64,000 nt of DNA from Raillietiella orientalis (lineage: Eukaryota), in the NCBI GenBank assembly GCA_036172245.1, contig JAYWIR010000018.1, forward strand, positions 1,426,001 through 1,490,000, read 5' to 3'. A model generated the notes under the pieces. That model was not told the origin of the DNA. It ran no database searches and saw only the letters and a program-made list of their open reading frames with translations. Positions 19,311 through 64,000 of the stretch are shown here, one piece after another; within the stretch, counting starts at the first letter, position 1; every line of letters starts with the position of its first letter. Made by a program: the position numbers and the translations under genes.

Positions 19311-19391
19311 GTAAGGTCCCAGGGATCTGACTGCGCATCACAGAGTTTTCTCCCTCTCTTCTCTCTCCTTTCCTGTTCCACACCCCTGCAG

Positions 19392-24339: not shown

Positions 24340-24473
24340 GTGAGTCGCAGGAAACGCCAGAGAAGATCTCTTCTTCGCCCCCTTCTCCCTTGTCCCCCCG
24401 CCTCTCTCTCCTTTTCTCGCTCTCTTCTCATGCCCTTCTCCCACCCCACCTCTACTGATTCGTGTCTTTCCAG

Positions 24474-40718: not shown

Positions 40719-43700
40719 ATTAGCTATCAAAGCATTGTAGTTCTAATTAATAAAAACAAACTGTATAGAGAATGCTGATAGCTACAGGATGTTTTAAAAT
40801 TTGAAACCAATTTCGCAAACAATTGAAACATTCATTATTTGCGATTCACATTGAGCACTTCAACAAACAAACAGCAACGGATTCATGTGACATCGCAAGT
40901 TCGAATAAAAGATACCAAGACATCCCTAATAGAAATTAGGTAAAACATAATACCAAAAGCTTATTAATCATGATTAAATAATTGAATGCATAAGTTGATA
41001 TGAGAAAGTATAAAAAATTATAAAAATCAGAACAAAGATATCAGTTTTCTTCCATTACCGGACACATATTTGATTTTGTGTTTATGTTAAATTCTGACTT
41101 GTTCATCTACATTAAAGCATAATATTACCATTATATTCCAGAAATGAGTTCTGAAACAAGAAATCACCATGCGTATAACTCCTCTACAAAATGAACATAT
41201 AAAATCCAAAAGCCCTTCAACAGTAAATAGTCCGCTGACCAATCTGTTAGCCCTACTCATCAGTCTATCTTTAATCGAGGTTGTATCAACCATCTCAAAA
41301 AACAGATCTATTCCCTATACCATCAAGTGCTCTTATCTGCTAATTTACCATGTATTTAAATCCCAAATATTTCTTTTCGAGGATCTTAATTTACGTTTCA
41401 TTCGTTTAAATACCGGTAGCCGAAATCTTCCGTCTAATGTGCCGAAATTTCACCCTTGTTTCCACTTGATATATTTTTGAATGAATCCATATTCATTCAA
41501 CAGACATTTTTATAAATGAAACTGGGAAAAGCAATTCATATCATTCTATTACTTTCTATTTTATCGAGAAAGTACTGATATGATTAGCGTGTTGGAATAA
41601 AAGTTCCTAGGAAAATCCAAGTGGAAAAAGTGAATTGATTTTTCTGGAGTACTCTTATTTTAAATGCATTATGGAGTGCTTTCTGAATAATGGTTTATTT
41701 GTAATAAACCAAAGGAGACTGTTAATAATACTTTTAAAAATGCACTTCATGAATAATATATATCTAGAATGTTTAATACCGCCTCCTCGTACTGATCTCA
41801 AACCTTAAAACGCCAATTCGAAGAAAACAAACTATGCAGTTCACTTTATTATAATATCATGGATAGGTTTCTGTTTCTTTGCACTAATAAATCTTTGCTA
41901 TTTTTATTAAATTAATTTGATTATAAGGTCCTCTATTCATTTGTAATGCCATTAGTGACAGAATCCTCTTGTACACTTAGTATCACCTACTTTATTGAAG
42001 GAGACTTTCATACAGAATCTTTGCATTCATGTTTATTGCATAGTGTATTATAGCATCTTCTAAATTTAACTATTCAGAAGCTTGAAGAAAACTATTTCTA
42101 AAAAATTGGTGAGTGTTTACATCAACATATAAATAGGGTTTTCCAGTAATATTTTTTTTGTATTAGTATTTATGAGACTGAATAAACATTTTCTTGGTAA
42201 ATTATTTTCTAATAAAATATTTGTGGAACAGTATGAAACTCAATATATCATGAATTTTCATCCTGCTATTCTCATCTCTTGTTTCCTACTTATAATACTA
42301 CTCTTTTTCTTTTTTAAGGAAACGATGAAAATTATCAAATGCCTTGCAATGTAAAAAGGTTTCCACTTTTCTAAGAACTTTCTTCTTTCGTCCTACAAGT
42401 AACAACCCCAACAGCATTGACTTGCTCACATGTGGGTTGACTTCCCAATACAGCATGTTTCTTAACCGAAATTTTTCATGCATGATTAATCTTATAGTGC
42501 ATTGCTTGCGTTTCATATAATCTTCCAGAGGAACGATCCAATATTAAATTTTTCAAGAAAGCACTCGAAATGAAAATTTTTTGTATGTTGAAGCACAAAA
42601 CTACTGAATGGAGTGTGATTGAAGTCATTCGTTCATAATGAGCCAATTCCGTTAGTATATTAATACAAGATATCAACTCATCTTTACCTAAACTCTTCGA
42701 ACCAATAGTATAAAAGCCCTAGCTTTTATACTATTCTCTCAAGTTGGGGTGAACTGCAAGCAGCCGAAATATTCTACACTTTATATCGAAGAAGTACCGC
42801 AGGACTTTGCATTGCTGAACAAAAGAATATAATGAACATATGCTACGAAATTAAAATGTGCATGCTCCACGCAAATTAAGTGCTGTACTGGAAGTTGTCC
42901 CGTACTGGATCGTATTTAGCAAAGTTGAGTCATTTTGGCGATGGAACCTTTTCTCTGCAAAAACCCAACATATCTGTAGAAAGAAAACTATCAACGGACG
43001 CAGCTCCTGTAAATGGAGTCCAAATACCTTTTTGATGTTCACATTTCGAGATCCACTTACATCGCCCCTCGAATACAAAGTCTATAATCACCCCGACTAA
43101 CTGCAAAGAGTTTTCTGAACAATTTCTAATGAGTGTTTTCTAAGAATTGTGGCCTTTACGTTTCCTGGGGTTTCTCCTGGCTATGAATTCTAATTTCACT
43201 TTATATACTAATGAGTTTCTAAACTTGCAATTTGTTACTATGAGAAGGATGCTGTGAAATGTTTAACAGTAACCTCATACAATTTGTATCATTATTGAGC
43301 TTCTTTTTCTCTAATGCGTGCGTAGACAATTCTTTGGATACGGTTTTTCTATAATCTGATTCTGCTCTCTTTATAAGTGGTAAGAAGACAGCAACACATT
43401 AATCCTAATTATTCGAGCATTCTGCTTTGAAGCGAAGTAGCAATCTTTGACGATTAACATTCAACTTGACCTGTAGTCATGCAGGACTGAAGGAAAAAGA
43501 TACTTTACTTCTAAACTTGCTGAACTCTTTTCTATTTCTGTTTCCATGGATCTGATCAATAATTCCATGATTATTCATTTCATTATGATTATAACTAGCG
43601 AATGGTCCCTACAGTTTCAAAGATGGAAAGATTTTAAATACAGTCACGGTAACGAAGATTGTTAATTTCAAAATCGTTTCAATGTACTCGGAGAAGACCT

Positions 43701-45858
43701 AATTGGGTTTTTTGCTTAATTAGATTTAGTAATGTGTATTTCTGGCCAACATAGTATGTTTACTCAAACTGGTTTCATATTTATAAATTTTTCATTTAAG
43801 TCTGCAATCTGCTACTTGAGCTTTCAGTAGAATGTGATCAATTAGATTATCGTATTAATAGGATTCAATGATTATTGTGGAATCTATAAATAGATATTCT
43901 TTGCATTCTTTCATGAGAAAGGTGTTCAATACTTTCAAAATTCCACATATCTATCCCGATACTTCAATGCAGGCCAAGAAAATAAATGATCATTTAATGG
44001 AATTACAAGTTTCATCAATGTTTTTCTGAAGAGCGAATTACAAACACTGATATCGTTTCCAATAAAGGAAACATATATAGATTGACTTTGGTTAAAAGAT
44101 TGCATTTTAAAAACGAACTAATTATTTTTAGTGTTAATGAATTAATTATTATTTAAGTGTTCTTTCACCTATTTACTATAGGAAACCAAGAGAAATCCAA
44201 AATAAATATGCAATCAGTGTCTAGAACCTATCTGTATGAGTAGACAGATGAATTTGAATCGATTGGATCTATTTGTATCAAGCTATTTCTTCGACAAGTG
44301 AGAATCCTGAACAAACATACATATATCTATAAATGTGGTGAAGAAAGATGGTACAAACATTGCATAAATATAAACACTTCAATAGTCTATATAGAGAGTA
44401 CACTTACACATTGTTAAGAGACATGTACCTATGTATGAATATCTTTTTTTATATGTGCAAATATAAGGACTGGATCCATATATCTACAAATATGTATGCA
44501 AATGAGTTTGTGAGAACTTGCATTGAGAGATGAACAGAGATCTATGAGAACTGGACGAAGGATGCTAGAATTAGAACTATTAGTGACACATGCATAAATG
44601 AAAGGTGCCATAATAGATCCGCTGCCCCGTGTTTATGTGTTCATCTTTTTCGTTTTTCACTATTCCAGTTTTATGATATTGATATGGATATGATATTGAA
44701 GTGCATAAGCATCAACAACATCTTGATTTCAGAAACAGTTTTATAGAGAAGGAAATACATATTTAGACATAGAATAGAAATTGATTCTTAGTATCAGACA
44801 GTCTTTTAATTGTTTCAATCGGTAGATTATTCTTGATGTACTTAACTTGAAGACAGTCTTAAGTATTATCATGGGATTTCTGTCATCACACAGTTTATAG
44901 ATTATCCGATTGGTAGACGAATACCAGTTCAATCCTGCTTGATATGAATGTGTAAGGTAACATCTGAACTTGTTTATTTTCCTAGAAGTTCGAATAAGAA
45001 AGACGAAATAAAATAATCATTAATGTTGATTGTCACAAATGTGCCGAAATTATTCACTTGCGCAAATTTCAATGACCCTATAACAAACCATCATGGTTTC
45101 TATTAGCATTCATTTCCAAGTAGATGTTATCAACAACTTGAAAGATTATGTTCCTCAACTCTTCACTAATAGAATACGTATCAGGTTTCACCTATATATG
45201 CTTTTGAAATAATTACCTTCGAAAAAATTTCTGTTTCCGTTTCATAGAAGGTTATAAACTCTGTGCAACTCAAACTTGTAATTTCATTTTGCAAAAAGAA
45301 AGAAGTCAATAGGGATTTAGTATATTGAAGTAACCAAATCTACATAAATTACAAACAATCTTTGCCGTCTTTCACAAATATTTTGACACTCCTTTATTGT
45401 TAAGGCAATTCATATAGTGAAATAGATGCAAAAACTAAATGAAAAATAGTATTTTTTTGAAGGTTTCGAAAAGTACATTCATGACTGTTGAGCTCATTTA
45501 TGTACCTTTCATAGCACGTGAGAACTACAGCATAATTTCATCATTTTTTCTGAAATATTGGAATACTGATTCAAATAGATGCAATATATTTAAAGAGGTT
45601 GTTTTGAATCGTTTAGTATTCAGTGTTCCATTCGTATTATATTTACATATGTACAGATATGTACATATATACACACACATATGCTCACATACACATGCAT
45701 GCACTATTGGCAACGTGTGTAAGACGGTTGCCACCACCTGGAGGGCGTCGAGTGCCGCCTATGTTGTGGTGAGCTTATACGGAGTGCCAAGCCCGCATAA
45801 GTTGAAGAGAGCTACAATCCCATGTGCAGAACCTACCATTACAGCATATTAGTCAAAG

Positions 45859-47592
45859 ATGCTAATACGAGGGTTTAGCGGTTCCTTACTCGCCATCCGA
45901 CATAAACTGCAGATACGTAAAAACACCGTTACCAGTCTTAACAGTAAGGAAATTTAATAGGACATTGAGAGCTTGAAGGATCATTCTTGAACAATGAGCC
46001 GCATTTTACACGAACTCAATCTTGTGCAAACCTGATTTAGTGAGCTTAATAAAGTAATGAAGCCGTAAATTGGAACACAACATTTAAAAGACGTTTAAGT
46101 AGCGGTTTCCTGGTCTGATGCCTTGAGGCAGAAGGAAATGGCGAAATGTTGCTCGGTTGCAAATGTTGGACATTCTTTTTATGTTTTGTTTTGTAATTCA
46201 CTGTAGTGTAAACTTTAAACTGTGATGAAAGTGTTGAAATCAAAACTGCAATGATTTATAATATAGGACGTTATGTTTTAGTTGCAAATGGATTGTCTGA
46301 AGAACAACAGCAAATCCAACAAGTTGCTCTGGAATTTGCCCGTAATGAAATGGCACCCCACATGAGCAAATGGGATCAGGAAGTAAGTACTTGTTGTAAT
46401 GCTTAATGAGTAAGCAATGCTTTTAAGGAAATTTTTCCAGTTGATACGTTGAGAAAAGCAGCCAGTCTTGGATTTGGAAGCGTTTTTGCAAGGGAGGAGT
46501 TTGGAGGATCAGGTCTAAGTAGACTTGATGGAAGTATCATCTTTGAAGCCCTTTCTCAAGGATGTGTAACCACCACAGCCTTCTTGACCATTCACAAGTA
46601 GTAAATTACTGATTGTTCATTTGAAAGTATATGAACAGCTTACAACACTTCTGATAGTTATCCTCTCATTTCAGCATGTGCGCTTGGATGGTAGATACGT
46701 TTGGTACAGTAGAACAGCGCCAGCAATGGATACCAGGTATCTCTTCTATGACCAAAGTATGTTCCTACTGCCTGACTGAGCCTGGATCTGGATCAGATGC
46801 AGCCAGCATATCAACTTCTGCACAAAAAGATGGACAATTTTATGTTCTCAATGGATCCAAAGCATTTATTAGTGGAAGTGGAGAAAGTGATCTGTACATA
46901 GTTATGTGCCGTACAGGAGAGCCAGGACCAAATGGTATTTCCTGTATAGTTGTGGAGAAAGGTGCTCCTGGTCTTAGTTTTGGGAAAAAAGAAAAGAAAA
47001 TGGGATGGAAAGCTCAACCTACAAGAGCAGTTATTTTTGAAGACTGTCGGACTCCTATTGAAAATAGAATAGGCAAGGAAGGTGATGGATTTCGTATAGC
47101 TTTGAAAGGTCTTACTGGTGGACGAATCAATATCGGTGAGCTAAAAGAATTGAGCTCAATATGATACAGATTTTAGCATCATGCTCTTTGGGTGGAGCAC
47201 ATGCAGCTTTAGAGGCTGCTATCAAGCACACCCAAGTGCGTAAACAATTTAATAGGCCCTTGGCAGACTTTCAACACACTCAGTTTTTATTGGCTCAGAT
47301 GGCTACAAGGCTGACATCTTGCCGTTTGATGGTGCGCAATGCTGCACAATCCATTGACGAAAATCATCCTGATGCCAACATGCTGGTAGCTATGACCAAA
47401 TTGATGGTGTCTCAGCAATGTTCAAAAATTACCAATAATGCCCTCCAATTACATGGAGGGTATGGTTATCTGAGTGACTATCCTATTGAACAGTATGTTA
47501 GGGATCTTCGTGTGCATGAAATATTGGAAGGCACTAGTGAGGTTATGCAACTCATTGTGTCTCGAAATCTTTTTAAATATGAATTCCTGTAG
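45859..47592 (+). CDS. ACAD8: Isobutyryl-CoA dehydrogenase (ACAD8-like), mitochondrial, 5 exons, ~410 aa
   Basis: Exons 45859-45943, 46282-46382, 46428-46597, 46675-47135, 47177-47592 (1233 nt, in frame). Basic N-terminal leader. Motifs [77 protein letters not shown]. Confidence 0.92.
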
Positions 47593-48192: not shown

Positions 48193-49453
48193 ACAGCTAT
48201 AATGCCTATACTCCCACTAGGTTATTAGAAAAAATAAAATGTTAGAAAAAAAAAATATAAGTGCATGCAACAAGAAAGAGCAGCGATTTAAATGCCCAGC
48301 ATTCGTTGCTTTCATCCAACTACCACAAAAAAAGTCAGAGATTGTTCCAGCAATACTCAAAAACGTCTACACAAAACGACTCTGAAAAAAGTTTGGATTT
48401 CGACGAGTGCGATACCCATCAAGGGAGTCATGTGGTTTGTCAAATTATACTATAGAGAAAGCACTTTTGTGATTCACTTGTAGAAATGCAGTTAATGCAT
48501 CAACTCTCGCGAACTGAGTGGTTGGTGAAAGCAAAGTGGTCTTAATGGAACTCATCCATTGGAGTTACCAGTTGTATTTCATTAATAAGCCTCAAGATCA
48601 GTAATGAAACCTCAAAAGAGCTACTTGAAAGTATAAAGAGGAAACCAAAAGACGACAGATAAATTATTGGAAGAGGAAGGCTCTTTTTCTGGGCTGTGGG
48701 CATGTATGGAAACGTTTGTTTGCTAAAACTACATCCACTTCTTCGCAGTCCTGGGGATACTTTGAGATCTTGCAGCCTATAAGAGCACACTGCCATATCA
48801 GCAGGTTGCATTCCTGTATCGTGAGAAAGGAGAAGGATAAAGTGGGAGAGTACGTGTGTCCTCACGCTTGCTTGAAGCTTCACTGTATGAGGTGCAAAAT
48901 TTTACCTTTCGAGAACTGTATAGGGAATATGTCTGTGGAAAGATAAAACAGTTCACACATAAAAACATGTCTGTGGGAATAGGCTTCCCACCCTCTCAGT
49001 GGCCAGGTGAACGCGATACAAGTGGTTGGGACTCAATTTACAGCACAAAGGCTCTTGCGAATAATAGAACTTTAGGGCTTCTGAATTCAAGTTTGGAAAC
49101 AATATCTTCATCCGTAACACTTCTGTTATTAATCCTGGAGTCATCTCTTTCAACACTATTTTATCTCCTAAATGTCAGATCATGGTGAGCGAACCCCATC
49201 TATCAGAATGGAACCATTCATTTCTGAAGCAGCTGACCCAATATAATAAACTTAGATTTGGAAGAGCTATCAAAAGCTATGTCAAGGGTAGCAATAACTG
49301 ATAATTATAGGTTTTAATACTTATTTATACTTTAATATAAATTATACAATTTTCCCCAAATTCCACAAGGGGTGGGATAAACTTACACTTTCATTCACAC
49401 TGTTTGAGCCCTTTCAGCTGGAAATCCGTTTTGGGTTTCATAAAGTACTGCAC

Positions 49454-52400
49454 TCAGGGTGGGTTCCTCGATGTTGTTGTCTGGGCTTCGTCCTCAATCC
49501 TCTTCAGGATGTAACGGTACGTCCAGGCCTGGAGTCTTCCACAATTCCTGATACCGATCTCCTTCTGGATCAATCCTTGCAGAATCTCCATCAGAGATGC
49601 GGCTATCCTGGCTTTCCTAATCTTCCACCACCGCACAAGTATAGCGGTGATGAGGAGAGCAATGGTTGTTCTCACCATAGGGTTGTAGCAGGGAACATTT
49701 GCATTTCCCTGAGACATCCCGGCAAGTGTTCCCATCACCGAGGTGGTGGTCATTCCTATGATCCTTTTCAGGATAAGCCAGTCTCGGAGCAGTGTGGGAC
49801 ACGTCAAGACGTGTAGTCTCGTATCCGTGTCTCCACATGCCTGGCAGTCTTCATCTTCCCGTTTTCCAGTAAAATATTTTAATCTAGACCCGCTCAGGGT
49901 TCCTCCGTGGTAAAACATCAGGAGGTTGTCCTGGGTGTCCTGCGGAAGGTCACTCCTCCAGAGTGTCGTGCCGATCGCTAACAGGTAGATCCTGTCACTC
50001 CCGTAGCGATCAGCGGCTTCCTGGAGGGCACTGATGTCCTTATCCTCTTCAATTATCAGTCTTCGGAGGTCTTGTTTGTTCACCCTGGACCAGGCGAAGT
50101 CCCTATGGTTTTTCCACACTTCGCATGTCCCATGGTAAATCTTCCTAACATCATCTCTATATACTGAAGTATCCGAGAATGATGTAGGTATTCTCCTCTT
50201 CTCCATTCCTGGATACGTTGTAGGTTAATTCTGGGCCGCTGGTAGATCCAGCTTCTCGTATCCGAGGGCACTTGAAGCATCCAACGGATCACCAGGATGG
50301 ATTCCTCCTGCCAGAGTTCCCTACTTCTTGGGACAATCTTCAGTTGGTGCTTTCGCACCAGCTGTTGCTTCCCTCTCCAGGTGGGGTCGATGGTGAGCCA
50401 TTCCCCTGCTCGCCCTAGCAGCACAGTCATAGGGCCTTCCGAGTTGTTTAACAACATCCAGTAGGCTCTGTGAGCCGCGTATGGCCAGTCATCCCATTGA
50501 GCAGCGATTTCCAGGATCTGTTGCGTATCCATGATTTCCACGGAATGTGCAAGCGACTTCATCCCGGAACCGCCCTCTTCCTTGTGACGACACAAGGGTT
50601 TCAATGTAACCCTGGGACGATATTTCCCCCAAAGGGTTTTCCTCTGCAGTTTTTCCACTTCTCTGGTGGTGTCCTTGTTCAATCGGTGGGAGGCCGCTCC
50701 GAAAAGTGTCTTTGGAAGGAGTACTCCATTCCAAAGACTGGCCTTCCCCTTCATGCCAAGGTCCAGTGAAGTGTACTTTGCTGCTTCCTTCGCTGTTTTC
50801 TCTAGGATTTCTGTCCATAATAGTTTCGACGCGAAGTCTCCGTCAATGTGAACTCCTAGTTATTTAGGGTGGTCCACTGTTCGGAATGCACTTCCCGTGA
50901 GCACGGAGAGTTCCAGAATTCCGATAGGCAAAAGTTGGCTTTTCTGGGCATTGATTTTCAAGTCCAATCCCTTTTCCATCAGCTCCATCACATCCAGGAA
51001 CGCTTTCTGTTCTCGTTCTCCCTTGATGAAGAAAATGAGATCATCCGCGTAAGTCAGATTTGTGAGCTTTTGATCGTCGATGGTAATTCCATGGAGACGT
51101 CCACCTCTCTCGATGAAAGAAGACAGTGCCTCCATGTAGATAACAAACAGCATCGGGCTTAGTGAGTCGCCCTGACGGACTCGTCGTTCCATCCGAATAT
51201 CTGCTGTTTCTACCACGTTGATAGTAATTCGAGAGTACTGCTTCTGAAGTACCATCCTCATGAAGTTGCTGAAGTATTCCGGAAGGCCCAGCTTTTCCAT
51301 AATCTTCAGCAGCATCCCATAGTCGATAGTGTCGAAAGCCTTCTCCATGTCGGTGAACACCAGCACCAGGTTCTCACCGATGAATCGGCTAAGTCCCACA
51401 GTGGCCTGGGCACACTTGACATTGTCCGACATGTGGCGTCCGGGCACCGCGCATGACTGAACGGGAGAAATCAGCCTCGGTATAACCTTGCCTAAGCGGT
51501 TGGCCCAGATCTTTGCCAACCACTTGGTATCAGAGTTCAAGATTGAGATTGGCCTCCATTGGGCAACCTTGGTTAGGTCGCCTCCTTTTGGCAACAATTT
51601 CATCCTACTCTCGTAGAAGAATTCTGGTAGTCCTCCTTCTTCTCGGATGCAGAGGGTCAGCTGGTGGAACAAACGCAGGTAAGCATGCAGGTACCTTGGG
51701 TAGTGCGTCATAGGAACACTATCCGGGTCTGCCGCCACATCCTTGCGTAATTCCAGAAACGCAGCCTTTATCTCGTCTTCGTAGAAATCCTCCTCCAGTC
51801 TCTTCCTTTGGAGGTCATCCGTCTTCTTTCCTAGATGCTTCATGAAGACCTTTTGATTTATTACACACAATTGTTGTCGTCGGAGGTGCCCCGTGTAATG
51901 CCTTCGAAAGACATCCACGATGTCTTCCGTCGTTCGTCGACTATAGCCGCCGTATTGGATACAGAAGATGCCTGTTGTCAGATTCTTCCTTTCCAGCACA
52001 CCGACTTCCCCTTTAACATTTTGAAAGACGTACCGACTCTCGTACTGTTCGTAGTACCTTGAGAGAGAGCGATCTTGGGTGTTCAACTCCCGGTACGCTT
52101 CCTGTCTCAACCTCTTGTCGGCAAACTGCATATTGCAGAACAAATGGATCCTATGATTCACACTGTCCCAGTCGGCGACTCTGCTGATAGTTGTATCTCG
52201 CAGAATCGCCTCGATGACTTCCTGGTGACAGGGGAGCGTCTCGAACCAGGAGGGCATGCAGATGAGCGCCGCCCTGGTGGCCTTGTTGCGACGAGGATTT
52301 TCCGTTCGGAGGGAGAACCGTACTAACGGATGATCAGACAGCAGAGTCTGCATGTCACGAAATCCTTGTATGCGGTTCTCGATTTCCGAACTATGCAGGA

Positions 52401-52774
52401 CATGGTCGATCGGCTTGTGGCTAGCTGTTCTCCACTGAAGTTCAGAATCATCGGACAGCCGCCGATACGCCGTCCTTCCTCTAGCGTCCTGGGAATGGGT
52501 GATCACATCCAGAATGTTCAGATCACCTGCAACGATGAGAATGTCCTTCGGTGCGACTCGTTTGCGGAGAGCTTCGTGCAAAGCCTCCGCGCACCGATGT
52601 TTCAGCTTCCATATACGTTCACCAGGAACAGTGAACGTTAGCGGACCAGGACAGCTGTACGCCGATAATTCGTCCAGGCATGGGACAGAAGCTTTCCAGG
52701 ATTGTGTGGGCGAGCTCGTTCTTCACGAGGATCGCCACACCCATGGTTTTCTTTTGCCCCTTGCTGACGAACAG
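49454..52774 (-). pseudogene. Element A ORF2 (APE endonuclease C-part, reverse transcriptase, C-terminal zinc finger), disrupted
   Basis: ORFs 50860-52581, 50080-50754 and 49454-50206. Premature TAA at the usual KYLG position (50860) and a frameshift near 50200. Confidence 0.9.
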
Positions 52775-53690
52775 GAAACACAGCTGCGATGGTGCACCAT
52801 GGCCATCGCAGCGAAGTTGTGAAGCACCCCTTGGTGTGTTCCGGCCCGAATCCTCGCCAGACGTATGTCCAGTACCCAAGGACTCGCGTCGTTTCTTCTG
52901 TGCCGCGGTCGGAAGATTCGAAGATGCGGTCTGCTCCTTGGACGCATGGCGTCCCTGGCTAAGGAAAATGGCTGGATGGTTTGCAGCTCCGCCAACTCCT
53001 CCGCTTGGCTGGAGGAGAACGCTGGCACGTGGGCAAAGATGAGTGAGGGAAGTCACGAGACGTGGAACTGCCTGCGGGCCGGCATATACGCCCGCCGCAC
53101 TATGAGGGAAATACTGGAATTTCCCGCGAGCTGCATGTGGGCGGAGAGGATCTTCCTTGCTACGGCGATGCCCTTCCTGCGGAGGGCGCTTTACAGCAGC
53201 CGGAAGCCGAGGTGGCAAGTCTCCTGCCGAATCGCAGGCACAGAGAAGTTGATCAGTGGCTGGACCATGGGAGAGCTGGCGGACGCCACAACCCCGAGCG
53301 TCCAGCCAAGAGGATTGAGGAAATGGGGCGAGCTGCTCGGCATCCAGACGGATGACTTGAAGTGGCCCCCAATTTTGAATGGATCCAGGATTCTTCCCCT
53401 GAAGTGGCAGGAGTCGGCGCTTCTCTTGTTGCATTGGAGTCTACCCTGCAACGCGCGCCGCTTCCACTGGACGCGGGGAAGTTTTCACCCGGTCACGCCG
53501 GGGCGTTTATTAAAAAACACTTTACATTTGCGGTACTAGGCCCCGCTACGGCCAATATTTCATGGGACCTGCCAGGAAGCCGGTTCTGAGGCCAGCTTGT
53601 CCTCCTCGGCAGAGGAGGGGATAGGGGGTAAAACAAAAAGAAAAATAAATGAAATAACAAAAAGAAACTATTTGGGGGGCCGAGAAGGGA

Positions 53691-56593
53691 TCACAACCCG
53701 CTAGAGGAAGAGACTATCCTTTCCAGGATGCCCTCGAGGTCCCTCGTCATAGCTCCCAGATGGGACCAGCCGATCGCGATTCGCAGGTAGCGACCCGCGT
53801 GTACGATGGGGTCCCTGTCGCTGCTCCCTCTGTTTGCTGCGCTCCAGGCGGCCACAATCCCTCGGAGGCAGCAGAGCGCTGCCAGGGTTGAGGCTGGTGG
53901 CAGGGCGTCTCGCACGAAGAGGAGTCTCACAACGTCTCTGGGGGTACTGCCGGCCGGCATAGGGAGGGTCGTAGCATAGCGTTCCCACAAGGGCCGAAGG
54001 GCAGCGCAGTCCACTAACAGATGGGGGAGGGATTCCTTCTCCCCACACACTGCACAGTTCTGTCTCACGTTCCCCAACGTCCAGTGGTGGCGGCGCGCGT
54101 TGCAGGGAAGACCCCAGTGCAACAACAACAGCGCCGTTTCCTGCCACTTGAGGGGGAGGGTGGATGCGTCTCTAAATAACGGGGGCCACTCTAGGTCATC
54201 CGCCGGGATGCCAAGCAGCTCGCCCCATCTCCGTATTCCATGCGGGTGAACGCTTGGGGTTGCGGCGTCTGCCAGTTCCCTCATTGTCCACCCGCTTAGA
54301 TCCTTCTCCTTGCCCGCTTTCCGGCAGGAGACTTGCCATCTCGGCTTCCGGCTGTTTTGAAGCGCCCTTCGTAGGAAGGGCAGCGCCGTGGCCAGTGGGG
54401 TCGTCTCCGCCCAAGTGCTTCTGGCGGGACACACGGGATCATGTTCCGCAGCGTGCAGCGGGTGTAGATGCCGGTGCGCAGGCGGTTGCAGGATTCTCCA
54501 CTGATGTGTTTCAACTTTGCCCACGTTCCAACTGTTTCTTCCAGCCATGCGCTGGAGTTGGCAGGGCTGCAGGCCATCCACCCGTTCTCCTTTGCCAGGG
54601 TGGCCATGCGTCCCAGGAGAACTCCGCATCTTCTTATTTTCCGGCCGGGGCACAGAAGAAAAGACGCGAGTCCTTCAGTCCCGGACACACGTCTGGCGAG
54701 AAGGCGGGCTGGAACGCACCAAGGGGTGTTCCACATTTTCGCTGCGATGGCTAGAGTACGCCACCGCAGCTGTGTTTCCATTCGCTCCATCGTCAGGACG
54801 CTAAGACCTCCGTCCCGACGTGGAGCGCACAAATCCTTTAAAGGCACACGAGGCCTCCCGCCGCCCCACAGGGCGATGCGTAGGTCCTTTGTTCTTTTTT
54901 TCAGTTCACGGGGTACGGGGCAAACAAAAAGCAGAGGGCGAAGGAGGGGGGCCGCGAACGCGTTCCACACAGCGGCCCGTTCCGGCAAGTGAAGCTTGCC
55001 TTCCAGGAACGGGCCGATCGCTGACTCCACTTTTTGGAGACGACCTGACCTTCTGACTGGCAGAAGTCCCCCAACGGAACGCCGAGGTACTTCAAGTACC
55101 TCTCCGTGGGGATCCCCAAGCGGATCCAGTCAGGCCGTCCGACCCACGTCGCACCAACCGCTACCACCGATGACTTCGCCTTATTTACCCGTAGTCCAGT
55201 CCCGCAGCTAAGCAGATCGAAGAAATCCTCGACTGCGGCTGCCGGGGCGGACATGGGCAAAAGGAGCAGAAGATCATCGGCGTAAGCCGCTACGGCCGGC
55301 GTACCTAGACACGAGCTTGGCAGGGCAGCCAATGTCACCCTGTATGCTCTCAGCACCAGTTCGAAATAGGTGCTAAAGAGCAGGGGACTCAGGCTGTCGC
55401 CCTGCCGGATGCCGCGCCTCACCGGCACGCCGAACATGTGCTGTCCTCTGAAAAACAAGTTGATGATCGCATTGCGCCAGCAGGCGCGCAGGTAGACCGT
55501 TAAGGTGTCCGGGAAGCCCATGCGATCCAGGAGCTCCAGAAGGAGTTCCTGGTCCACGCAATCGAACGCTTTGTGCAGATCGACTGCGATCGCTAGAGCC
55601 CCCTTTCCTTCCCGGTCGTCCCTTACTTGCTGCGCTGGCGCCCTCAAATCAGGTTTGTCGACATTCCGTTCTTTTTCCAAATTTTTCTCGCGTTGCACAT
55701 GGAACCATGTGCTGGCGAAGAACAGGTTCGCTTCCATGCTTCGTCCGGGAACAGCGTACGTCTGTTCCGGGCTGACGAAGCTGTCAGCTACCTGCCCCAG
55801 TCGCGCAGCCCACAGTCCAGCCAGCAGCTTGGCGTCCGTGTTCACAATCGTGATCGGACGCCAGTTGCATAATTTTCTGAGGTCTCCTCCCTTAGGAAGG
55901 AGCCTCACCCTGGCTGACCGAAACGAGGCGGGAACATCGCCTTCGTTTTGGATCAGCCGTGTCAATTGGAGCACCAGGGGGGTCAGCTCTGCAGCGAAGC
56001 ACTGAAAGAACTCCGCCGGCAGGCCGTCCTCCCCTGGCGCCTTACGCCTCTTGAGCCTTTTAATAGCGGTGATGATTTCACCGGTCGTAAAAGGCTCGTC
56101 GAGGCTTTCTTTCTCCTCCTCTCCTATGGCCGGGGCTCCATCTGGGAGCAAGCGCCGCGAGACGTCCCACTCCGCAGGTACCCTGGCTTAAAGGGAGGAG
56201 TAAAATCCACGCACGAGGCGACGTATCGATGCCGGGTCCGAGTATTTCTGGTCCAGGTCGTCCAGCACGCTGGGCGGCCCGGTTTGCCAGGCTTGACGCT
56301 CGGCCCCGGCTTTGTACTCGGCCAAGCGACGGATGTCAGGGGTCCTCGCGAAACGACAGGCGTGCAAATACGCTCTTTCGTTGCGGGCCCCCTTACCAAA
56401 TCCCCGGGGCAGGCGGTGCACAGGGAACTCCTCGCAGAACTCGCGGACCGAGGCCTTCATGCGGTCCCAGTCTTGGAGATTCCGGAGGATGACGCCTCCC
56501 AGTACTTGGCGGAGATGTTCTGCCGCACCTGAGATGCGCGTCCAGTCCCCGGGCAGACGCCACGCCCTGGATGGTGGTCCTTTGTCGCGAGGC
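53691..56593 (-). pseudogene. Element B ORF2 3' part (reverse transcriptase and CCHC domain), frameshifted
   Basis: Overlapping ORFs 54901-56151, 54296-55030 and 53691-54653 with RT motifs and CAVCGEKESLPHLLVDC. Confidence 0.9.
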
Positions 56594-56701
56594 TTCCCCG
56601 TGTCCTTCTAGGGAGCGGAGTTGGTTTGGCATTGCTCAGCGGTCTAGTTAGTGCGAAGGTTTTCGGTGGTTTTGTCTGGTGTGTAGGAGCGCCGGTGTCC
56701 C

Positions 56702-58424
56702 ATGGCAGAAATGCCTGAGGACACCGCGATGGAAATTGGGGGAGGAGAGGCGACTTGCTCTCCACCACCCATGAAAGTGGGGGCGTCCGCCGTCACGGAA
56801 TCCGGGGCACTTGCCCCATCGGAATCGGGGGCAGCCGCCCCTTCGAGACCCTCTTCGCCAGCGGCGAGGAGTTGGAATGCCGTCGTTGCTGCACCATCCC
56901 CGGCTGCAGTAGCGGAGTAGACTGCCTACAAGGACAGCGGCTACAAACCGTCGCTGATCTACAAGGTAGGCAGTGTGTTCGACGAGAAAATTACACGCTC
57001 CTTTGAAATGGAGCTGCAAAGACTGAATGTGAGGGAGGAAGACCTCGAGGGCCTCTCCGTCCTTAATGGGGGGCAGCGAGTTGAGCTGACTTGCAGAGAG
57101 GCAAGTCTGGCGCAGCGCCTGCTAAACACCCCCATTACGGTGGACGGCCGCAGGATCTTCCCTGTGACGGAGGACCGCTCCGTCGTGGTCCACCTCACGG
57201 GCGTATCACTCCGAATGGACAAAACCAGCGTCCATGAGGAGTTGTCAAAACACAGTAGTGTGCACGCGTATTGGGCCAAACCCAATGTCTTCCGAACGTA
57301 CGGAAGGAAGGCTATTCAGTGGGATGGCCGCTGCCCGCGTCACACTACCGGAGAATGGTGGGTTTCCCCACAAACTAGATATCGGCGAAGAAAAAGTCGA
57401 TGTTTGGTACGTGGGAAAGCCCAAGTATTGTGGCCATTGCGATGCTACAGGGCACTTAAAAAAACGGTGCCCTAACATCCAATGCCACTTATGTGGAAAC
57501 AAGGGCCACATCCGCAAGGTGTGCCCAAGACGAGAAATCCCGGTCCCTCCCGCTGCCAAAAAGGCAAAGGGGAAACGGGCGGGAGAGACGAATACCATGA
57601 AGCAGGCCGTAAGGAGCCAGATGCCAGTCCCTAAGCCATCCCAGCAAACGTCGGTTGAGAGCACTCCCGACGACGCTGGCGACGGCGAAGGCTGGCAGAC
57701 GGTACAGCCCAGAAGAAAGCCCAGGAGTCCCGAACGAAGCGCGGGGAAAACAAAAACGCAGCGCGAAAAACCGTGCTGCGAAAAACTTCGCGCGTGTTCG
57801 GTGAAATTAGAGCGTGTGGAGGCACTCGATGCCGCCACCGGGGGAGCAATCCCCCCCCTCGCGTCCGCCGAAGCCGCGACGGTCGATGGCGAACCCTCTG
57901 GGGAAACAGAGGGGGAACCGCGCGCCGCGCTCGACGCGATCGAGGAGACCGCCTTCCAGCAGGCGGTGGAAGAACTCACGGCAGAACTGCAAGGCCGTGA
58001 GAAGAACTCCCGGAAAGGCTTACGAAGGCCGGCCGCGAGGAAGGCTCCGGATGCAGGTGAGGCCGAACCGGATGCCGGAAGTGCGTCCTCCTCAACGGAG
58101 GCGCCACCAAAGAAGACGGGACGCAAGTCCCAGAATCCCAGGAGGCGCATACGGATCAAGAAGGAGGAGGATGAACTGGCACCCGAGGGGGAAGCCGGCA
58201 GCGTGGGAGGCGAGGGTGGGAATCTTTCATTTCTCGACACCGTGCAGCTGGCGACCCCCATGGAGGAGGAAGTACAGGTGGGTGGAACCCCCCTTCCTCT
58301 GCACGGCCCTGACGAAGACTCGGCCCCCATGGAGGAGGGAGAAGCGGTGCGCGACGCACCCCCTCCTCCTAGCGTCCCGCCCGACAAGGTGGCGGGAGCC
58401 CCATTGCCACTTTCCCAGGATTAA
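56702..58424 (+). pseudogene. Element B ORF1 (gag-like, two CCHC knuckles), one stop and one frameshift
   Basis: ATG 56702, SWNAVV motif, in-frame TAG at 56918, frameshift near 57330. Knuckles CGHCDATGHLKKRC and CHLCGNKGHIRKVC, followed by a low-complexity tail. Confidence 0.82.
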
Positions 58425-58442
58425 CACCTGGGCTCGCCTGTC

Positions 58443-59119
58443 GCCGTAGGATCCGCGTAGCCTGCTGGAACGTCAACGGGCTGCGCGACGACGGCAACAG
58501 GTGGGATACGGCCGACACCCTGCGCGACTTCGACCTGGCGCTCCTGCAGGAGATCCACGTGATCACCGCGGAGAACGCCCAGGAGATCGAGAGGATCGCA
58601 GGGGGTCGTCTGTTTTGGCAATGCGGCGCTCGCAACACCTGTGGCGTCGCTTTTTTTATGAAGCCAGCAGTCGCCTCCTTCGTCAAGGACGTACGCTTCG
58701 ACAACGACAGTCGGGTTGGCCAGCTCATCCTTAGGTGGTCCGACTCGATCGACCTTGTCGTGACCAATGTGTACGCTCCGAGCGGAGGATGCGGGTAGGG
58801 GGAACGTTCCCGGTTCCTCGAAACCCTGAAGCGCGACTGGCTGGCGGATACAAACGTACGCAAAGTGCATCTGATCGGTGGGGATTTCAACATCCGCCTG
58901 CTCTCAGGTGTGCCTTGCGGGCAAAAAGACGCAGCCAACGAGCTGTGCGCTGCTATGCGCACGCGCAACTTGTTGGGGGACCTACCGGAAATGGTCCAAA
59001 GCGTAGACCACGTCTTCCTTGATGCCGACCTGTGCCCACGGGTCGGCAGACGAGGGAAACTTCCGTCGACGCTATCGGACCATTTCCGGTTGATATTCGA
59101 GGTTATGCCTCGCGACAAA
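58443..59119 (+). pseudogene. Element B ORF2 5' part (APE-type endonuclease)
   Basis: Motifs ACWNVNGLR, LLQEIH, GVAFF, NVYAP, IGGDFN, VDHVF, LSDH. In-frame TAG at 58796. Confidence 0.88.
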
Positions 59120-59916
59120 GGACGCGGGGAAGAGTGAATCCTGAGTGTGCCAGGTGTGGGGAGCGGGAGTCCCTCCCCCACCTTATAGTTCACTGCCCTG
59201 CCCTCCGGATTCTTTGGGATCGTCTTGGAACGGCCCTTGGGATACCGGTTGGTGGCAACCCGAGAAAAGTTTACAGTCTTCTCTTCGTGTGGGACGCCAT
59301 GAGGCTAGCCGCAGCCCTGGCAGCACTTTGCTGCATCCGTAATATTGTGGCGGCCTGGAGTGAAGCCGAAGATGAAGATTCCAACGTAACGGACGTCATC
59401 CCGTATGCTGTTCGCTTCCTGCAGAGAGCTACCGGATGGCCCCAGCTGGGTAGATTGAAGGAGGACCTCGAGGGCATCCTGCAAAGGATGGATCCTCCTC
59501 GAAGTGGGCAGTGATCCCTTCCCATGCCTTAAAAACTTTTTTTTTTGGTTATTTTTTTATTTTTCTTTGTTTTTTCCCCCTTCCCCTTCCACTGCCGAGA
59601 AGAGTCACGCTGGTCTGCGTCCTGGCAGGTCCGGCGATATGCTGGCGGTTAGTGGGGCCTTGTACTGCGTATTGTACTGACCTTTGGAAAAGTTTGAATA
59701 AACGTCCCGGCGTATCCGCGTGGCATCGCTGACGAACAGTTGACCGTTCAAGGGTGATCCGACATCCCAACTGGTGGGTTTCTTGCAGACACGATATCTT
59801 GCTGTGCGATGATCCGTACAATCCTTTTTCTTTTGCCTTGGTTCGTCAGTCCATTGACATTCCAGAAGGCGATGTTGATTCTCCTGGTGGTGGACAAGGA
59901 CGAGGCCATGAAGAGG

Positions 59917-61416
59917 TTATTTTCTTGTTTTCCTGGTCTTCATCTGCCGAGGAGATCTCTTCGTTCTACCGGAGGCAGAAGGCTTTTCGCTTCCTGAGTC
60001 ACTTTCCATGCCGGTGAGGTCGGTGGCTTCTGCCACTTGTTCCAACTTCTCCATGACACTGCGTGGAAGCATCTCCAAGCTCACCCTCGCACAGTACTCG
60101 GTCTTCACGTTAAGAAGCTTGTTCTCCAGCTTCTCGCGGTGGGCCTCCTCCATCGTCCTGTTGATGTCCTCCTGGACCTCACAGAAACGTCGTAGGAGTT
60201 CTTTCTCCTTCCTTTCTACTTCACGCTGGACATCCTCTGCCAGCTTTCCCAAGTCCTCGGTTATCTTCAGAGTTCCCTCCTATACCGGAGACACTCCGCC
60301 TCTACCCTCTTTTCAATCTTCTCTGCCATCTCGCCATCCTCTGCTACTTCCTTTGGTTTCTCGGATACTTCTTGCTCCTTTTGGAGAACCCCTTTTTTCC
60401 TTTTTCCTCACCTCCACAAAACCGTCCTCAGACACGAGTGGGACTTCGCCCTTCCTCCTCGACTTCTCTGCTACTACTTTCTTCGGCTCTTCAGCCGGTT
60501 TTTTCTACTCTTTCCCGCACGGGGGAAACTCCCGTGCATAGTACGCCAGTTCGCGTATTTCGGACAACTCCACCTCGTGTGGCCCGGAGCCTTGCAAAAG
60601 GCACACACCACCGGCTGCTGACACGACCTGACCTGGTGCCCCTGCTTACCGCAGCGGAAACACCTAGACCTCGGACAAGCGCCGACCTTATGCCGAACCA
60701 CTTGCACTCTGTGCAGGAAATTGGCTGTTGCCTATAGCGGACGTAGACTTACTGGGAGTCCTTATCGATGTGGACCAACCCTGGAATTTGCGCCCCCTCC
60801 AACAGCTTTATTTTTGCTCTAACGTCTCCAAAGAACACTTCACGAGAGTGGTTCCTGAACTCGACGTCCAGGACTTCTCCATACTTGGCCAAAAAGTTCC
60901 AGATGGCTTGTTTCTTTGTTGCAATACAAACGCCACCTAGGAACACTGTGGTGTATGGCATTTCACCAATGCCCCGCACCAACCGGTCTTGAATATTAAT
61001 GCCTTTCTCGATGAGAGCTTCGATCAGGGGTTCACTATCAGTATAAATAGTGAACCCTGTAGTGCTGGGTATGATCGCCGGCACATGATCGAAGTCAACA
61101 TTTGCCTTGAAGAGGGCTAAATACATTCTTTTATGTTATTTATACGGATAAGTCCGGTTTTAAACGTGATGGGTTTCACGTCTGGACTTATCCGTATTAT
61201 TAGTTCGTCCTTATTCTCTATCGTCCCCACTTCGGGCTTACCAAAACTGCGGTTTCGCTGGGCATTGGTGCCCGCCACTACCGCCGCGTACGACACTGGC
61301 CGCGATGTCGCGGCCGCACAAGACGGCGTCTCACCCTTCGAGCTCCGCGCCACGTGGGAGCTCGAGGGCTGTGTCTCTGGCGTCTCCTCGGGGGTGACCC
61401 GAGGCTCCGCCGTCAC
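59917..61416 (-). pseudogene. Element A ORF1 (gag-like, RRM-like region, zinc knuckles, coiled-coil), frameshifted; start approximate
   Basis: Fragments 61117-61416 (SYAAVV), 60749-61126 (IWNFLAKYGEVLDV), 60474-60707 (CCHC), 59917-60252. Confidence 0.8.
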
Positions 61417-64000
61417 TCGATCACCCGACGCTACCTCTCTTGTCTGGGGTGACGTCGGCCTCTATCTCCTGCATCTTGGCGGCGAGTTGCTGCACTCCTG
61501 TCGTCGAGATGGACGCAGTCCCTCCACCGGGCTGTCCCTGTTCTTGCAGGTGGTTAAGTCTTCCGTTGCACTAACACTATTAGTTTCACGTCACTGTTCA
61601 CTCTTTTGGCAATTCTTATTGACCACTCGGGGCAAGCAAAAATTGCCGCGGCAGTGATGTTACTCACTGCCTTGGCGGGGTATTGGGTAAAGTTTTCAAC
61701 TAGCAATAATCGCGGCTCTGCACGCGTCCTCGCCTACGATAATGCCCGTGCACAAGGCAATATAAATTATACAATGATGTTTAATTGGCAATTGACGTGA
61801 AATAAGTTTTTGAAGCCCAATAATTTTATAGTTCCAATACTGACCGAATCCACCTGGTGGACATTTTGTCTTAACGCAAAGTGGTACATGACCTTCAAGA
61901 AGCATTCAACAATAACAGTTGCTCTATAAAAGAACTAATCAAAAGAATGCAAGCAATAGATAGAAGGAAAAAATTGAAGAAAAGGAGTATTTCCTAACTT
62001 AATGGGATCTTTATCGTATTAAGGGAGAGACTCAACGAAGACAAAACACAAAATTACACTTTAGCAGCTTGCTTTATTGATAGATTTATTGATTAATGGA
62101 TTTATTGAAGAATTATTGATTATTAGCATTCATTGAAGATCTTGTACTATTGCTCAGGCAAATCTTGTAGTATAAGTATGAATCCATATGGGAGTTCATT
62201 CCAGAATAAATAGCACCACAATAAATGGAGTTACTTTAAAAATACAGAATTAATTTGCAATTCCATCAGAATGGTATTTCTGGAAAAGTCAAGCTGAAAG
62301 TAAGGAAAAAACAGTAACAAAAAGTTTTTCAGCTTCAAAGTGGAACAGCAATGAATTCAACACTCTAATTTAAACCCCAATGATCAAAGCACAAAGACCT
62401 AACATATAAGTGAATAAAGCATTGCAAAGACTCCATTTCTCATCTGGGAAATGTATGCTTTTTAAGTAATTTACACTCCATGCAACAAACCTTGCAGCAA
62501 ATTACAGAGAATTCAACAAAATACTTCTGATGTGTACAGTATGAGGTATGTAGCTTTGTACAGTATACTTTCGAACTGGATCTTGTTTGAATCTACATGA
62601 GAATTTTGAAAATATTTAAGGTCTTTGATTTCTTAAAACGGAATATGCCATTTATGAGCCGCTCTGACTAAATAAGATATAAAACGTACCCATCGCACAT
62701 ATGCGTCGTATTTCGCCTAAGGGAATGCACTAGAAATATCTTGAAATTATCATCTACAGCCGGACATGTCAAAGTTGCCAACAAAGGGAGAACTTAAAAC
62801 ATCTGGTGATGATGACCCAAATTCACACTTAGACCATACCAACTTGCAATTAGGTGTGTGAGACATGAGAATCCCACATCAATCGACTATTCTTTTCTCA
62901 GTCCATCTTTTAAAACTTAATTTTAAATATCACAGCTTGAGCACTCGGAACCAATAGGAGCACTTGAAGATTTTTGACTATTGAATTAAATATGAATATA
63001 AGTGCTATGTCTTCGAAAATTCATTCTTCTCCATTCTCCTGGAATTATGAATGAATACTGATGTACGTTTTATTTCTATATTGTTTTTTCAGTAATTCTC
63101 CTTGAAGTACTGAAATAATGACTGGTTTCTCCGTTTGGGGATCCTTATGAAATACTATCAAAAATGTTGTAATTAAAAGTATTGGAATATCATTACGTTT
63201 TGGTTCCGCTAGCGCTTGCTAAGTTGTTCCTTTACGAAATAGTAAGAAAAGCTTTTGTATATTGGAATTGACCGTATTACGGTAGAGAGAGTAACGTATC
63301 TGTACCTCCTTTTCTAGGGATGAATAAAAGAGAACATTTATATATCGAGGAAACTTCCGATTCCTCCTTGATATTGACCAATCCAAGACTCCTATAAAGC
63401 ATAAATTTCAACGTGAGTAAGCAATTCTCAAGTTGACTAAAACAAAGAACTGTCCAATGATGAAACCACTGAGTTCTAGAAAAACAATAGTTTGTTGAAT
63501 ATCATTATGTGATGTGTAGATATATTGGGCATTTAATAATATTGGGCTTTTGCTTTCTAAGAATGCTTACATGTAAAGAAATAAACGCGGTCACAAATGG
63601 AAATATTATCATAGACATAAATTCTGCCAAAATGTGTTGCTTTCTGGGTTTCAGAATCATATTTGGAAATCCTGTGGATGATTTTTTTTTTTTTTTTTAT
63701 GAAGAAAAACGAGAATTGTCAAAATTGTACCAGAAAAGCTAGCAATCGGAAAGCAATTAGCTCAAAAAAGTTCGAATATACGAAAGTATTGTAGACTAAA
63801 GTCTACAGGCAGACTGAACAAGCTGTATGGCTTGACAATAAGTACATTGAAAAATGTATAAAAAGGAGAAATATAGTAAACCGAGGTAGTCACGCTTTTT
63901 GCCATTGACTGACAAAAAGTGGCTTTGAGGCAGAAAAAGGAAACAACCGAGAATAGAACAGAATTTTGATTTTAGATGTTTTCCTTAGTTAGAAAATAAA

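Follow-up and report, generated by a model that had tools for sequence, protein, structure and literature searches.

The targets listed in PMC4494074 for retrotransposons of the Tx1 clade, which lack long terminal repeats (non-LTR retrotransposons), include U2, U5, 5S, microsatellites, DNA transposons, and LTR retrotransposons; examples are Tx1L, which is found in Tx1D, Keno in U2 genes, and Tx1-Mar in Mariner, and insertion into LTR retrotransposons is given for Tx1-8_Crp and Tx1-4_AMi. L1 chimeras with the small nuclear RNAs (snRNAs) U6 and, more rarely, U1, U2, U4, and U5 are described as known in bioRxiv 10.1101/2025.02.02.635956, and snRNA/L1 chimeras also appear in PMC4494074, which cites Buzdin 2002 and Garcia-Perez 2007. 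For human L1, an internal duplication (median 22 bp) is reported in 283 of 1,703 5′-inverted insertions, together with a median length of 0.54 kb for the inverted arms and 22 "templated insertions" that copy DNA from at most 15 bp from the insertion site (bioRxiv 10.1101/2024.08.27.596794). In this study, we analyzed a 64-kb window, by which we mean the whole stretch from position 1,426,001 to 1,490,000 of contig JAYWIR010000018.1 of Raillietiella orientalis, where three dead copies of L1/Tx1-like retrotransposons, designated A, B, and C, lie one within another between ordinary genes.

Three Nested Copies and Their Order of Insertion

The nested block spans 12.4 kb, and we read it, with moderate confidence, as the product of three successive events of target-primed reverse transcription (TPRT) in one intergenic spot, with a switch onto U4 snRNA in A and an insertion of the twin-priming type in B, the copies being dead by now. 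An original prediction, made from the letters of the window, had described three nested non-LTR retrotransposons, each with an intact target-site duplication (TSD), and had noted that many Tx1-clade families are target-specific, some of them for transposons, as is stated in PMC4494074. The block is made up as follows.

49334-49350, no strand: left copy of the TSD of A, AATATAAATTATACAAT; exact, two copies in the window
49351-52762, minus strand: 3′ part of A, from the 3′ end through most of the endonuclease-coding region
52763-52774, no strand: left copy of the TSD of C, GCTGACGAACAG; exact, two copies
52775-53468, plus strand: left part of C (C-left); 77% identity to B 54778-54083
53469-53481, no strand: left copy of the TSD of B, GGACGCGGGGAAG; exact, adjoins the 3′ end of B
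53482-59119, both strands: B, both arms
59120-59132, no strand: right copy of the TSD of B; exact
59133-59727, plus strand: right part of C (C-right) with zf-RVT; 71% identity to B 54056-53530
59728-59739, no strand: right copy of the TSD of C; exact
59740-61758, minus strand: 5′ part of A including its U4 head; from translations and sequence reading
61759-61775, no strand: right copy of the TSD of A; exact

The TSDs are exact over 17 nt (A), 12 nt (C), and 13 nt (B). When the strings were counted across the window, each was found exactly twice, and in 100 dinucleotide-preserving shuffles two matches were not reached once for any of the three. Removal of each guest restores its host. With one copy of the TSD retained, C rejoins across B to a sequence that is colinear with B, shows no gap where the two pieces meet (identity 73% across 1342 columns), and reads FHWTRG/RVNPEC in frame. 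Element A rejoins across C in one frame as ...GQ/LFVSKGQKKTMGVAILVK, in the part of an apurinic-type endonuclease that is bounded by the motifs LQETH and GVAIL; one of 246 high-scoring segment pairs (HSPs) obtained by tblastn with database proteins of long interspersed nuclear elements (LINEs) spans this junction (P0133, E 3.6e-4). Because of the nesting, and because each host is restored when its guest is taken out, the order of insertion is A, then C, then B.

These results bear out the TSDs that had been claimed and their positions, the restored hosts and the order of insertion, as well as the statements that A is split in its endonuclease by C and that C is split just before its zinc finger by B. 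Of the further statement that each guest is antisense to its host, the part concerning C in A stands, and for B it holds for the 3′ 3.1 kb only, whereas the 5′ 2.5 kb (with the CCHC-bearing open reading frame 1, or ORF1, and Exo_endo_phos) lies on the plus strand and is in sense with C. The nest is real and well above chance, but B had been misdescribed and the U4 head of A had been missed. It should be added that nested LINEs with a readable order are routine, and the nesting as such is genuine but commonplace.

The targets of A, C, and B are three unrelated sequences, with a guanine-plus-cytosine (GC) content of 0.23, 0.53, and 0.64, respectively, and a comparison of the three first-strand nick sites (CAAT/GATG, CAGC/AAGG, and GAAG/AGTG) gave no consensus worth claiming. 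An inverted repeat of 4 nt, CACT...AGTG, borders the target of B (53465-53485 and 59116-59136), and both strand nicks therefore fall 5′ of AGTG; the second-strand cut at this target thus resembles the first-strand cut on the other strand.

For comparison with a second genome, we aligned to positions 48500-62500 of the window a DNA sequencing run of a related, not identical, genome (run X1, holding 0.10 of the words). Most of its records are diverged, 352 of 495 being less than 90% alike to the window sequence, and its cover of the left flank (48500-48966) is zero; X1 therefore represents neither the same locus nor the same species. In X1, a related genome in which the left flank is uncovered, we saw no allele of this locus with an empty site. 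One X1 contig joins 52774 to 59827 and thus holds an A-like copy without the guest C.

Element C is a 1.3-kb, 5′-truncated copy of a second, GC-rich family, and it entered the endonuclease-coding region of A on the opposite strand, with a duplication of 12 nt. C-left begins after the reverse transcriptase (RT) core and ends in ...FHWTRG, and C-right begins with RVNPEC... and continues through the zinc finger and the 3′ untranslated region (UTR) to the 3′ end, ...AATAAACGTCCCGGCGTATCCGCGTGGCATC. At the DNA level the identity of B to C is 77% for C-left and 71% for C-right. The 3′ end of B (53482-53500) has just four A's, and that of C (59700-59727), ...GGCATC, lacks an A-run; the B and C families are without a long poly(A) tail.

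A metagenome scan with the 17-nt motif common to the 3′ ends of B and C returned 119 loci, none of which (0 of 119) had blastn similarity at E 1e-8 or better to six segments of the nest. On inspection these loci were chance matches and an unrelated repeat sharing a palindromic motif, and they were rejected as relatives of B and C. Many of the metagenome contigs (L019, L024, L036, L041, and others) contain this repeat, which starts ...ACCGTAAAACTTCT and includes the palindrome AATAAACGCCCCGGCGTTTATT; half of the palindrome is the motif common to the two 3′ ends, and beyond this motif we found no similarity of the repeat to B or C.

The Inverted Structure of Element B

Element B is composed of two arms on opposite strands, which meet at an additional, inverted copy of its own target.

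53482-56592, minus strand: direct arm of B, 3′ end ...AATAAACGCCCCGGCGTGACCGGGTGAAAA at 53482; RT and zf-RVT
56577-56593, minus strand: first copy of a 17-nt core, GCCTCGCGACAAAGGAC, at the 5′ end of the direct arm
56593-56605, minus strand: third, inverted copy of the target of B (GGACACGGGGAAG as read on that strand), placed exactly where the arms meet and with a single mismatch of CpG type
56606-59119, plus strand: inverted arm of B, with the 5′UTR from TTCTAGGGAGCGG..., ORF1, and endonuclease, ending in ...FEVMPRDK
59107-59123, plus strand: second copy of the 17-nt core, an exact inverted duplicate that overlaps the right TSD by GGAC

If the TSD is called S and its reverse complement S′, one reads along the plus strand S, the 3′ arm in antisense with the core at its end, S′, the 5′ arm in sense with the core again at its end, and S. 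With up to one mismatch allowed, the 13-nt target has four matches in the window against 0.11 expected, and the inverted one abuts the duplicated core. Microhomology is present at both contacts: The core overlaps the right TSD by GGAC (4 nt) and the middle target copy by G (1 nt), and GGAC is common to the start of the TSD and to the element sequence that follows CCTCGCGACAAA.

The direct arm starts, in sense, with ...(G)CCTCGCGACAAAGGACC, which reads KPRDKGPPS, directly after the endonuclease, and it carries the RT (about 55075-55872) and zf-RVT (about 53985-54161), broken by at least one in-frame stop and at least two frameshifts. On the inverted arm, ORF1 has its first ATG at 56702 and two CCHC knuckles at 57429-57527 (Pfam zf-CCHC E 0.0067, below the cut-off) and is broken by a stop and a frameshift. 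The endonuclease follows at about 58466-59083 with one in-frame stop; residues 36-179 of a zebrafish pol-like protein match 58448-58891 in frame +2 by tblastn. An Rfam scan over the nest gave neither a ribozyme nor another RNA for the 5′ end of B, the only sub-threshold matches in the nest being ncS54 and mir-1991, both of which we took as chance.

Judged from their sequences, the two arms are one element, because they share the 17-nt core, because their ends (FEVMPRDK and KPRDKGPPS) fit together, and because a colinear copy is found in X1, where one contig (depth 16, shorter side 112 letters) connects 56593 with 59101, the two being on opposite strands, so that the copy of the relative has its endonuclease colinear with its RT. 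That the plus-strand segment with ORF1 and endonuclease might instead be a separate, fourth element is suggested by its opposite strand and by the target-like 13-mers that bound it. The segment has no 3′ end of any kind, however, which an insertion by TPRT must have, it stops exactly where the minus-strand arm starts, with 17 nt in common, and both parts are colinear in the contig of the relative. We find a fourth element barely credible, and we rejected it on the missing 3′ end and the core shared with the minus-strand arm. Two other joints in X1 also involve B-like sequence: One, from 55867 to 58568 on opposite strands, is an internally deleted colinear copy, and the other, from 58615 to 53485 with one letter between, places a B-like 3′ end antisense inside the endonuclease region of another B-like copy.

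Inversions of this type are explained by twin priming, a model said to go back to Ostertag and Kazazian in 2001. B shows one pair of TSDs, a direct 3′ arm and an inverted 5′ arm, both from one element, and microhomology between the target overhang and the internal site (GGAC). It departs from the classical form in that the 13-nt inverted copy of the target separates the arms, which are not joined directly as complementary DNAs (cDNAs); because of this target copy between the arms, we file B as a variant and not as classical twin priming. Most likely, B is a 5′ inversion of the twin-priming type in which a piece of the element was duplicated internally and the target overhang served as template for a further copy. 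The structure can be read from the DNA; the steps that led to it would have been the following. B, about 73-77% identical to C, entered C just before the zinc finger with a duplication of 13 nt. A nick in the plus strand would have primed cDNA synthesis from the 3′ end of B, and the minus-strand overhang may have primed internally on the same RNA, at the 4-nt GGAC match just after the endonuclease. This internally primed cDNA would then have copied ORF1 and the 5′UTR and produced the inverted 2.5-kb arm, and an overrun of the first cDNA past the internal primer site by 17 nt would account for the duplicated core. At the 5′ end of the RNA, the second cDNA presumably continued onto the target overhang, single-stranded over 13 nt, and copied it as far as the duplex, giving the inverted third copy of the target; copying would have halted at the duplex, which is why exactly 13 nt would be present. 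Finally, the second cDNA would have paired with the first through 1 nt.

Several points weigh against this account. The target copy at the inversion junction is not predicted by classical twin priming, the inverted arm of 2.5 kb compares with a human median of 0.54 kb, and TTCTAGGG... is only a putative 5′ end of B. The evidence for colinearity and for an empty site consists of single contigs from one run of a related genome. Lastly, a later flip between two staggered breaks yields the same final structure and is indistinguishable from it by sequence.

Such a flip has to be considered in its own right. B could have been inserted full-length and antisense, and the 2.5-kb piece between two staggered double-strand breaks could have been flipped later, or before ligation was finished; the stagger would be 13 nt at the right copy of the TSD and 17 nt at GCCTCGCGACAAAGGAC, and the 3′ overhangs would have paired at their ends (GGAC/GTCC and G/C) before being filled in. 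All features would follow from this together, the flipped piece being bordered by inverted duplicates of the 13-nt target as well as of the 17-nt core and the two microhomologies being present, and the sizes of the stagger match the TSD lengths observed here (12, 13, and 17 nt). Inversions that keep the TSD, at break ends made by L1, are moreover reported in bioRxiv 10.1101/2024.12.14.628481. On the other hand, the flip needs a second cut at exactly both of the original nick positions together with a simultaneous cut 2.5 kb away, and the 4-nt match between overhang and element is equally predicted by internal priming on RNA. We consider it unlikely.

Another explanation for the middle copy, CTTCCCCGTGTCC, is that it was inherited: If the B family were site-specific for a target in C-like ORF2, the copy could be the 5′ flank (TSD) of the parent of B, carried on a transcript that started upstream and was inserted by ordinary twin priming. 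The middle copy does stand directly 5′ of the B leader in the sense of B, one base off the local TSD, and transposon-targeting families exist in the Tx1 clade, including those with LTR retrotransposon targets, as do 5′ extensions from the flank of a master copy, described for SINEU-2B (both PMC4494074); the B-like 3′ end lying antisense in another B-like copy in X1 points in the same direction. However, that nest in X1 is elsewhere (58615, in the endonuclease) and not at this site, C used an unrelated target, and the match ends exactly at 13 nt, the next bases being the core of B itself and not C-like flank. The single mismatch, too, is a CpG transition as decay would give. We therefore give this explanation little credence and retain the twin-priming-type insertion as the preferred one.

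A U4 snRNA at the 5′ End of Element A

When the window was scanned with Rfam and matches were judged at the gathering score, a single one was found, and it lies in A:

61623-61759 (137 nt), minus strand: full-length U4 snRNA, 5′ head of A; Rfam RF00015, inside the TSD of A

The match covers positions 1-138 of the 138 in the model with 93.3 bits (gathering score 46, E 1e-19), and the Sm site AAUUUUUG is present. U4 is in sense with the LINE, on the 5′ side of A, and the right TSD begins at 61759. Since U4 sits at the extreme 5′ end of A and inside its TSD, it arrived together with A.

The remainder of A is near full length. Read in sense, it has a leader of about 148 nt and an ORF1 with its ATG at 61474 and two CCHC knuckles, read from the sequence, near 60.57-60.67 kb. 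The N-terminus of its endonuclease (NIAFWNVNGL..., LQETH) is spread over three frames (59740-61622, minus strand), the RT lies at about 50929-51588, and a C-terminal zinc finger, CQACGDTDTRLHVLTC, with the motif CX2C...HX4C was found by a script search at 49799-49846, before the 3′ end, ...GGGGAAAA, at 49351 (minus strand). ORF2 is broken; across the reading frames 49454-50224, 50080-50859, and 50860-52722 it has one in-frame stop and one or more frameshifts.

A is a chimeric U4::LINE retrocopy or a member of a U4-associated family. In the insertion of A, the RNA of an L1/Tx1-like LINE was copied into AT-rich DNA with a 17-nt duplication. For the former, at the 5′ end of that RNA the RT may have run on into U4 snRNA, by a template switch or on an RNA already joined, so that the insert reads U4 and then LINE. 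The latter is that A is not a one-off chimera but belongs to a lineage linked with U4, whose copies have a U4 head or which inserts into U4 genes as Keno does in U2. It draws on X1, where two contigs (depths 11.8 and 25.9) join U4 at the same point, 61718 (U4 position 42), to A-like 3′ ends, at 49349 with 20 letters between and at 49483, and where the ORF1 region of A is nearly uncovered (0-1.3). PMC4494074, furthermore, lists Tx1-clade families aimed at U2 and U5 snRNA genes; U4 snRNA is not mentioned in the main texts of PMC4494074 or PMC4640811. Against such a lineage, the U4 in the window is complete (1-138), upstream of A, and inside the TSD of AT-rich DNA that is not U4, which is the layout of a template-switch chimera. 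The common breakpoint at 61718 may only mark where the U4 of the relative stops aligning at 80%, and the shorter sides of the two joints measure only 37 and 89 letters. We regard a U4-associated lineage as possible on this evidence, though only tentatively. If true, a link of family A with U4 would lengthen the list of snRNA-associated LINEs.

Assignment to the L1/Tx1 Group

The presence of RT, endonuclease, zinc finger, and TSDs of the TPRT type supports the original prediction in its description of three non-LTR retrotransposons and identifies them as LINEs with an apurinic-type (APE) endonuclease, of the L1/Tx1 group. RVT_1 was recognized by Pfam in A (E 6e-28, reading frame 50860-52722) and in B (E 1.6e-21). 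The best match among solved structures is human L1 ORF2p for both RTs (E 3.5e-42 for B and about E 5e-35 for A), with R2 proteins ranking behind. Matches to zf-RVT in B (E 7.9e-5) and C-right (E 0.0035) are both below the Pfam cut-off. An endonuclease of the APE type was found in B (Exo_endo_phos, E 2.6e-6 and 0.0049, plus strand); that of A is known by its motifs only (NVNGL, LQETH, and GVAIL), the 5′ pieces of A having no Pfam match at E 0.01 or better, and none is expected in the 5′-truncated C. All three copies are decayed by stops and frameshifts.

In a collection of 5.8 billion proteins, the nearest relatives, mostly unnamed, have 30-35% identity to B and 24-32% to A, and many of them share the architecture Exo_endo_phos, RVT_1, and zf-RVT. 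Because human L1 ORF2p is the best structure match and a zinc finger is found at the C-terminus, we assign A, B, and C, on the strength of their sequences, to the APE-type LINEs of the L1/Tx1 group as very divergent members, a strict placement in the Tx1 clade going beyond this. The families of A and of B and C are new members of the group.

Genomic Context and the Stacking of the Elements

The nest starts about 1.75 kb past the last domain of an isobutyryl-CoA dehydrogenase-like gene, in AT-rich intergenic DNA. Three genes were recognized in the window:

6.2 to 27.3 kb (Pfam-matching reading frames), plus strand: very large cadherin/EGF/laminin-G gene, by Pfam
32735-39722, minus strand: Nup98-96, with Nup96 and GLEBS domains
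46212-47592, plus strand: isobutyryl-CoA dehydrogenase-like (acyl-CoA dehydrogenase) gene, compact, with very short introns

The first of these includes a single open frame of 1670 amino acids (19331-24343, plus strand), similar to FAT/CELSR, in which a laminin-G domain and EGF domains occur besides 11 cadherin repeats; additional frames with cadherin and laminin-G sequence are located at 6188-7783 and 24277-27293. An exon of the acyl-CoA dehydrogenase gene is about 68-74% identical to isobutyryl-CoA dehydrogenases of many animals, with no close relative; since identities in the databases reach no more than about 70-74%, sampling of the host lineage is poor.

A tblastn search of the window with 18 LINE proteins gave 38 HSPs, none of which (0 of 38) fell outside the nest, and the intergenic stretches at 28.5-32.7 kb and 39.7-46.7 kb contain no open reading frame of 150 amino acids or more. 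In GC content, the elements (0.51-0.60) are set apart from the intergenic DNA (0.32-0.37). A comparison of 1-28000 with 40000-46000 likewise showed a strongly bimodal composition, with 0.57-0.68 for cadherin coding sequence and 0.31-0.35 for intergenic DNA; the GC content of the B/C family resembles that of coding, not intergenic, DNA.

Why the elements are stacked is most likely a matter of harmless insertion into an existing dead element within a compact, gene-dense region. B and C may in addition favor GC-rich targets, and in this AT-rich intergenic DNA such targets would be provided chiefly by other elements. For the preference of the B/C family for retroelement sequence that the original prediction had suggested, the one hint is the B-like joint in X1, in which a B-like 3′ end lies antisense in a further B-like copy. 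What speaks against these explanations is that a safe haven and a GC preference are here argued from two insertions only.

Clusters giving rise to PIWI-interacting RNAs (piRNAs), and nested stacks generally, contain elements inside elements, with an order that is readable from the nesting, and the original prediction had offered a transposon trap or piRNA-cluster-like locus as one way to understand the nest. A region that collects antisense insertions would fit three stacked elements in which every guest has its primed (3′) part in antisense to the host. Yet the nest is the sole LINE sequence found in the 64 kb and lies between compact protein-coding genes, two antisense orientations occur by chance in one of four cases, and half of B is in sense with its host; the antisense pattern as a whole amounts to two events and one joint in X1. 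As the window is gene-dense and no other LINE RT was found in it, the proposal finds no support, and we regard a trap or piRNA cluster as very improbable.

Implications

One short stretch of DNA thus keeps three side-reactions of TPRT: 5′ truncation, a probable template switch to an snRNA, and probable twin priming with internal duplication. Such reactions are mostly documented for mammalian L1 and are seen here in very divergent L1/Tx1-like families of a poorly sampled animal lineage, which suggests that they are general to the L1/Tx1 group. At the inversion junction of B, the inverted copy of the target is an unusual and sharply defined footprint, and if it recurs elsewhere it could constrain models of the 5′ junction. 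This copy and the possible U4 link of A are the sole parts that merit follow-up, the phenomenon being otherwise of known kind.

Taken further, the observations could be combined into one doubtful but coherent reading, in which the target copy of B would be the footprint of a normal step of the RT at the 5′ junction, A would represent an undescribed U4-associated L1/Tx1-like lineage, and B and C would favor GC-rich LINE coding sequence. The step at the 5′ junction might then, speculatively, be a jump from the 5′ end of the RNA onto the target overhang, which is copied up to the duplex, made in B by the "wrong", internally primed cDNA. The lineage of A, in an equally uncertain part of this reading, would be either headed by U4 or inserting into U4 genes.

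Comparison with Known Systems

The locus differs from piRNA clusters, which are long, strand-biased arrays dense in transposable elements, in that it is one isolated nest and the window is dense in genes. With the target-specific LINEs of the Tx1 clade described in PMC4494074, the elements share an APE endonuclease, RT, and C-terminal zinc finger, an ORF1 with CCHC knuckles, and the occurrence of guests within other transposons. In contrast to those families, the three targets found here are unrelated and bear no sign of a recurrent target, and that of A is plain AT-rich intergenic DNA.

Element A resembles the chimeric snRNA/L1 retrocopies of human in the full-length snRNA, located 5′ and in sense, and in the one TSD around the whole unit. 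L1 is usually strongly 5′-truncated in the human chimeras, whereas A is near full length, with ORF1 and the 148-nt leader; the host of the human chimeras is a mammal and that of A is not, and for A the X1 contigs hint at a repeated linkage of U4 and A-like ends.

B, finally, is similar to 5′-inverted insertions of human L1 in that one pair of TSDs surrounds a direct 3′ arm and an inverted, more 5′ arm, with microhomology between the internal primer site and the target overhang and a short duplication at the inversion point (17 nt in B vs. a median of 22 bp); DNA beside the insertion site is occasionally copied into the human insertions as well. It differs from them in the 13-nt copy of the target overhang, with one mismatch, at the inversion junction, in a long arm of 2.5 kb that apparently reaches the 5′UTR instead of being 5′-deleted, and in its membership of a GC-rich, non-mammalian L1/Tx1-like family with a tail of only four A's.

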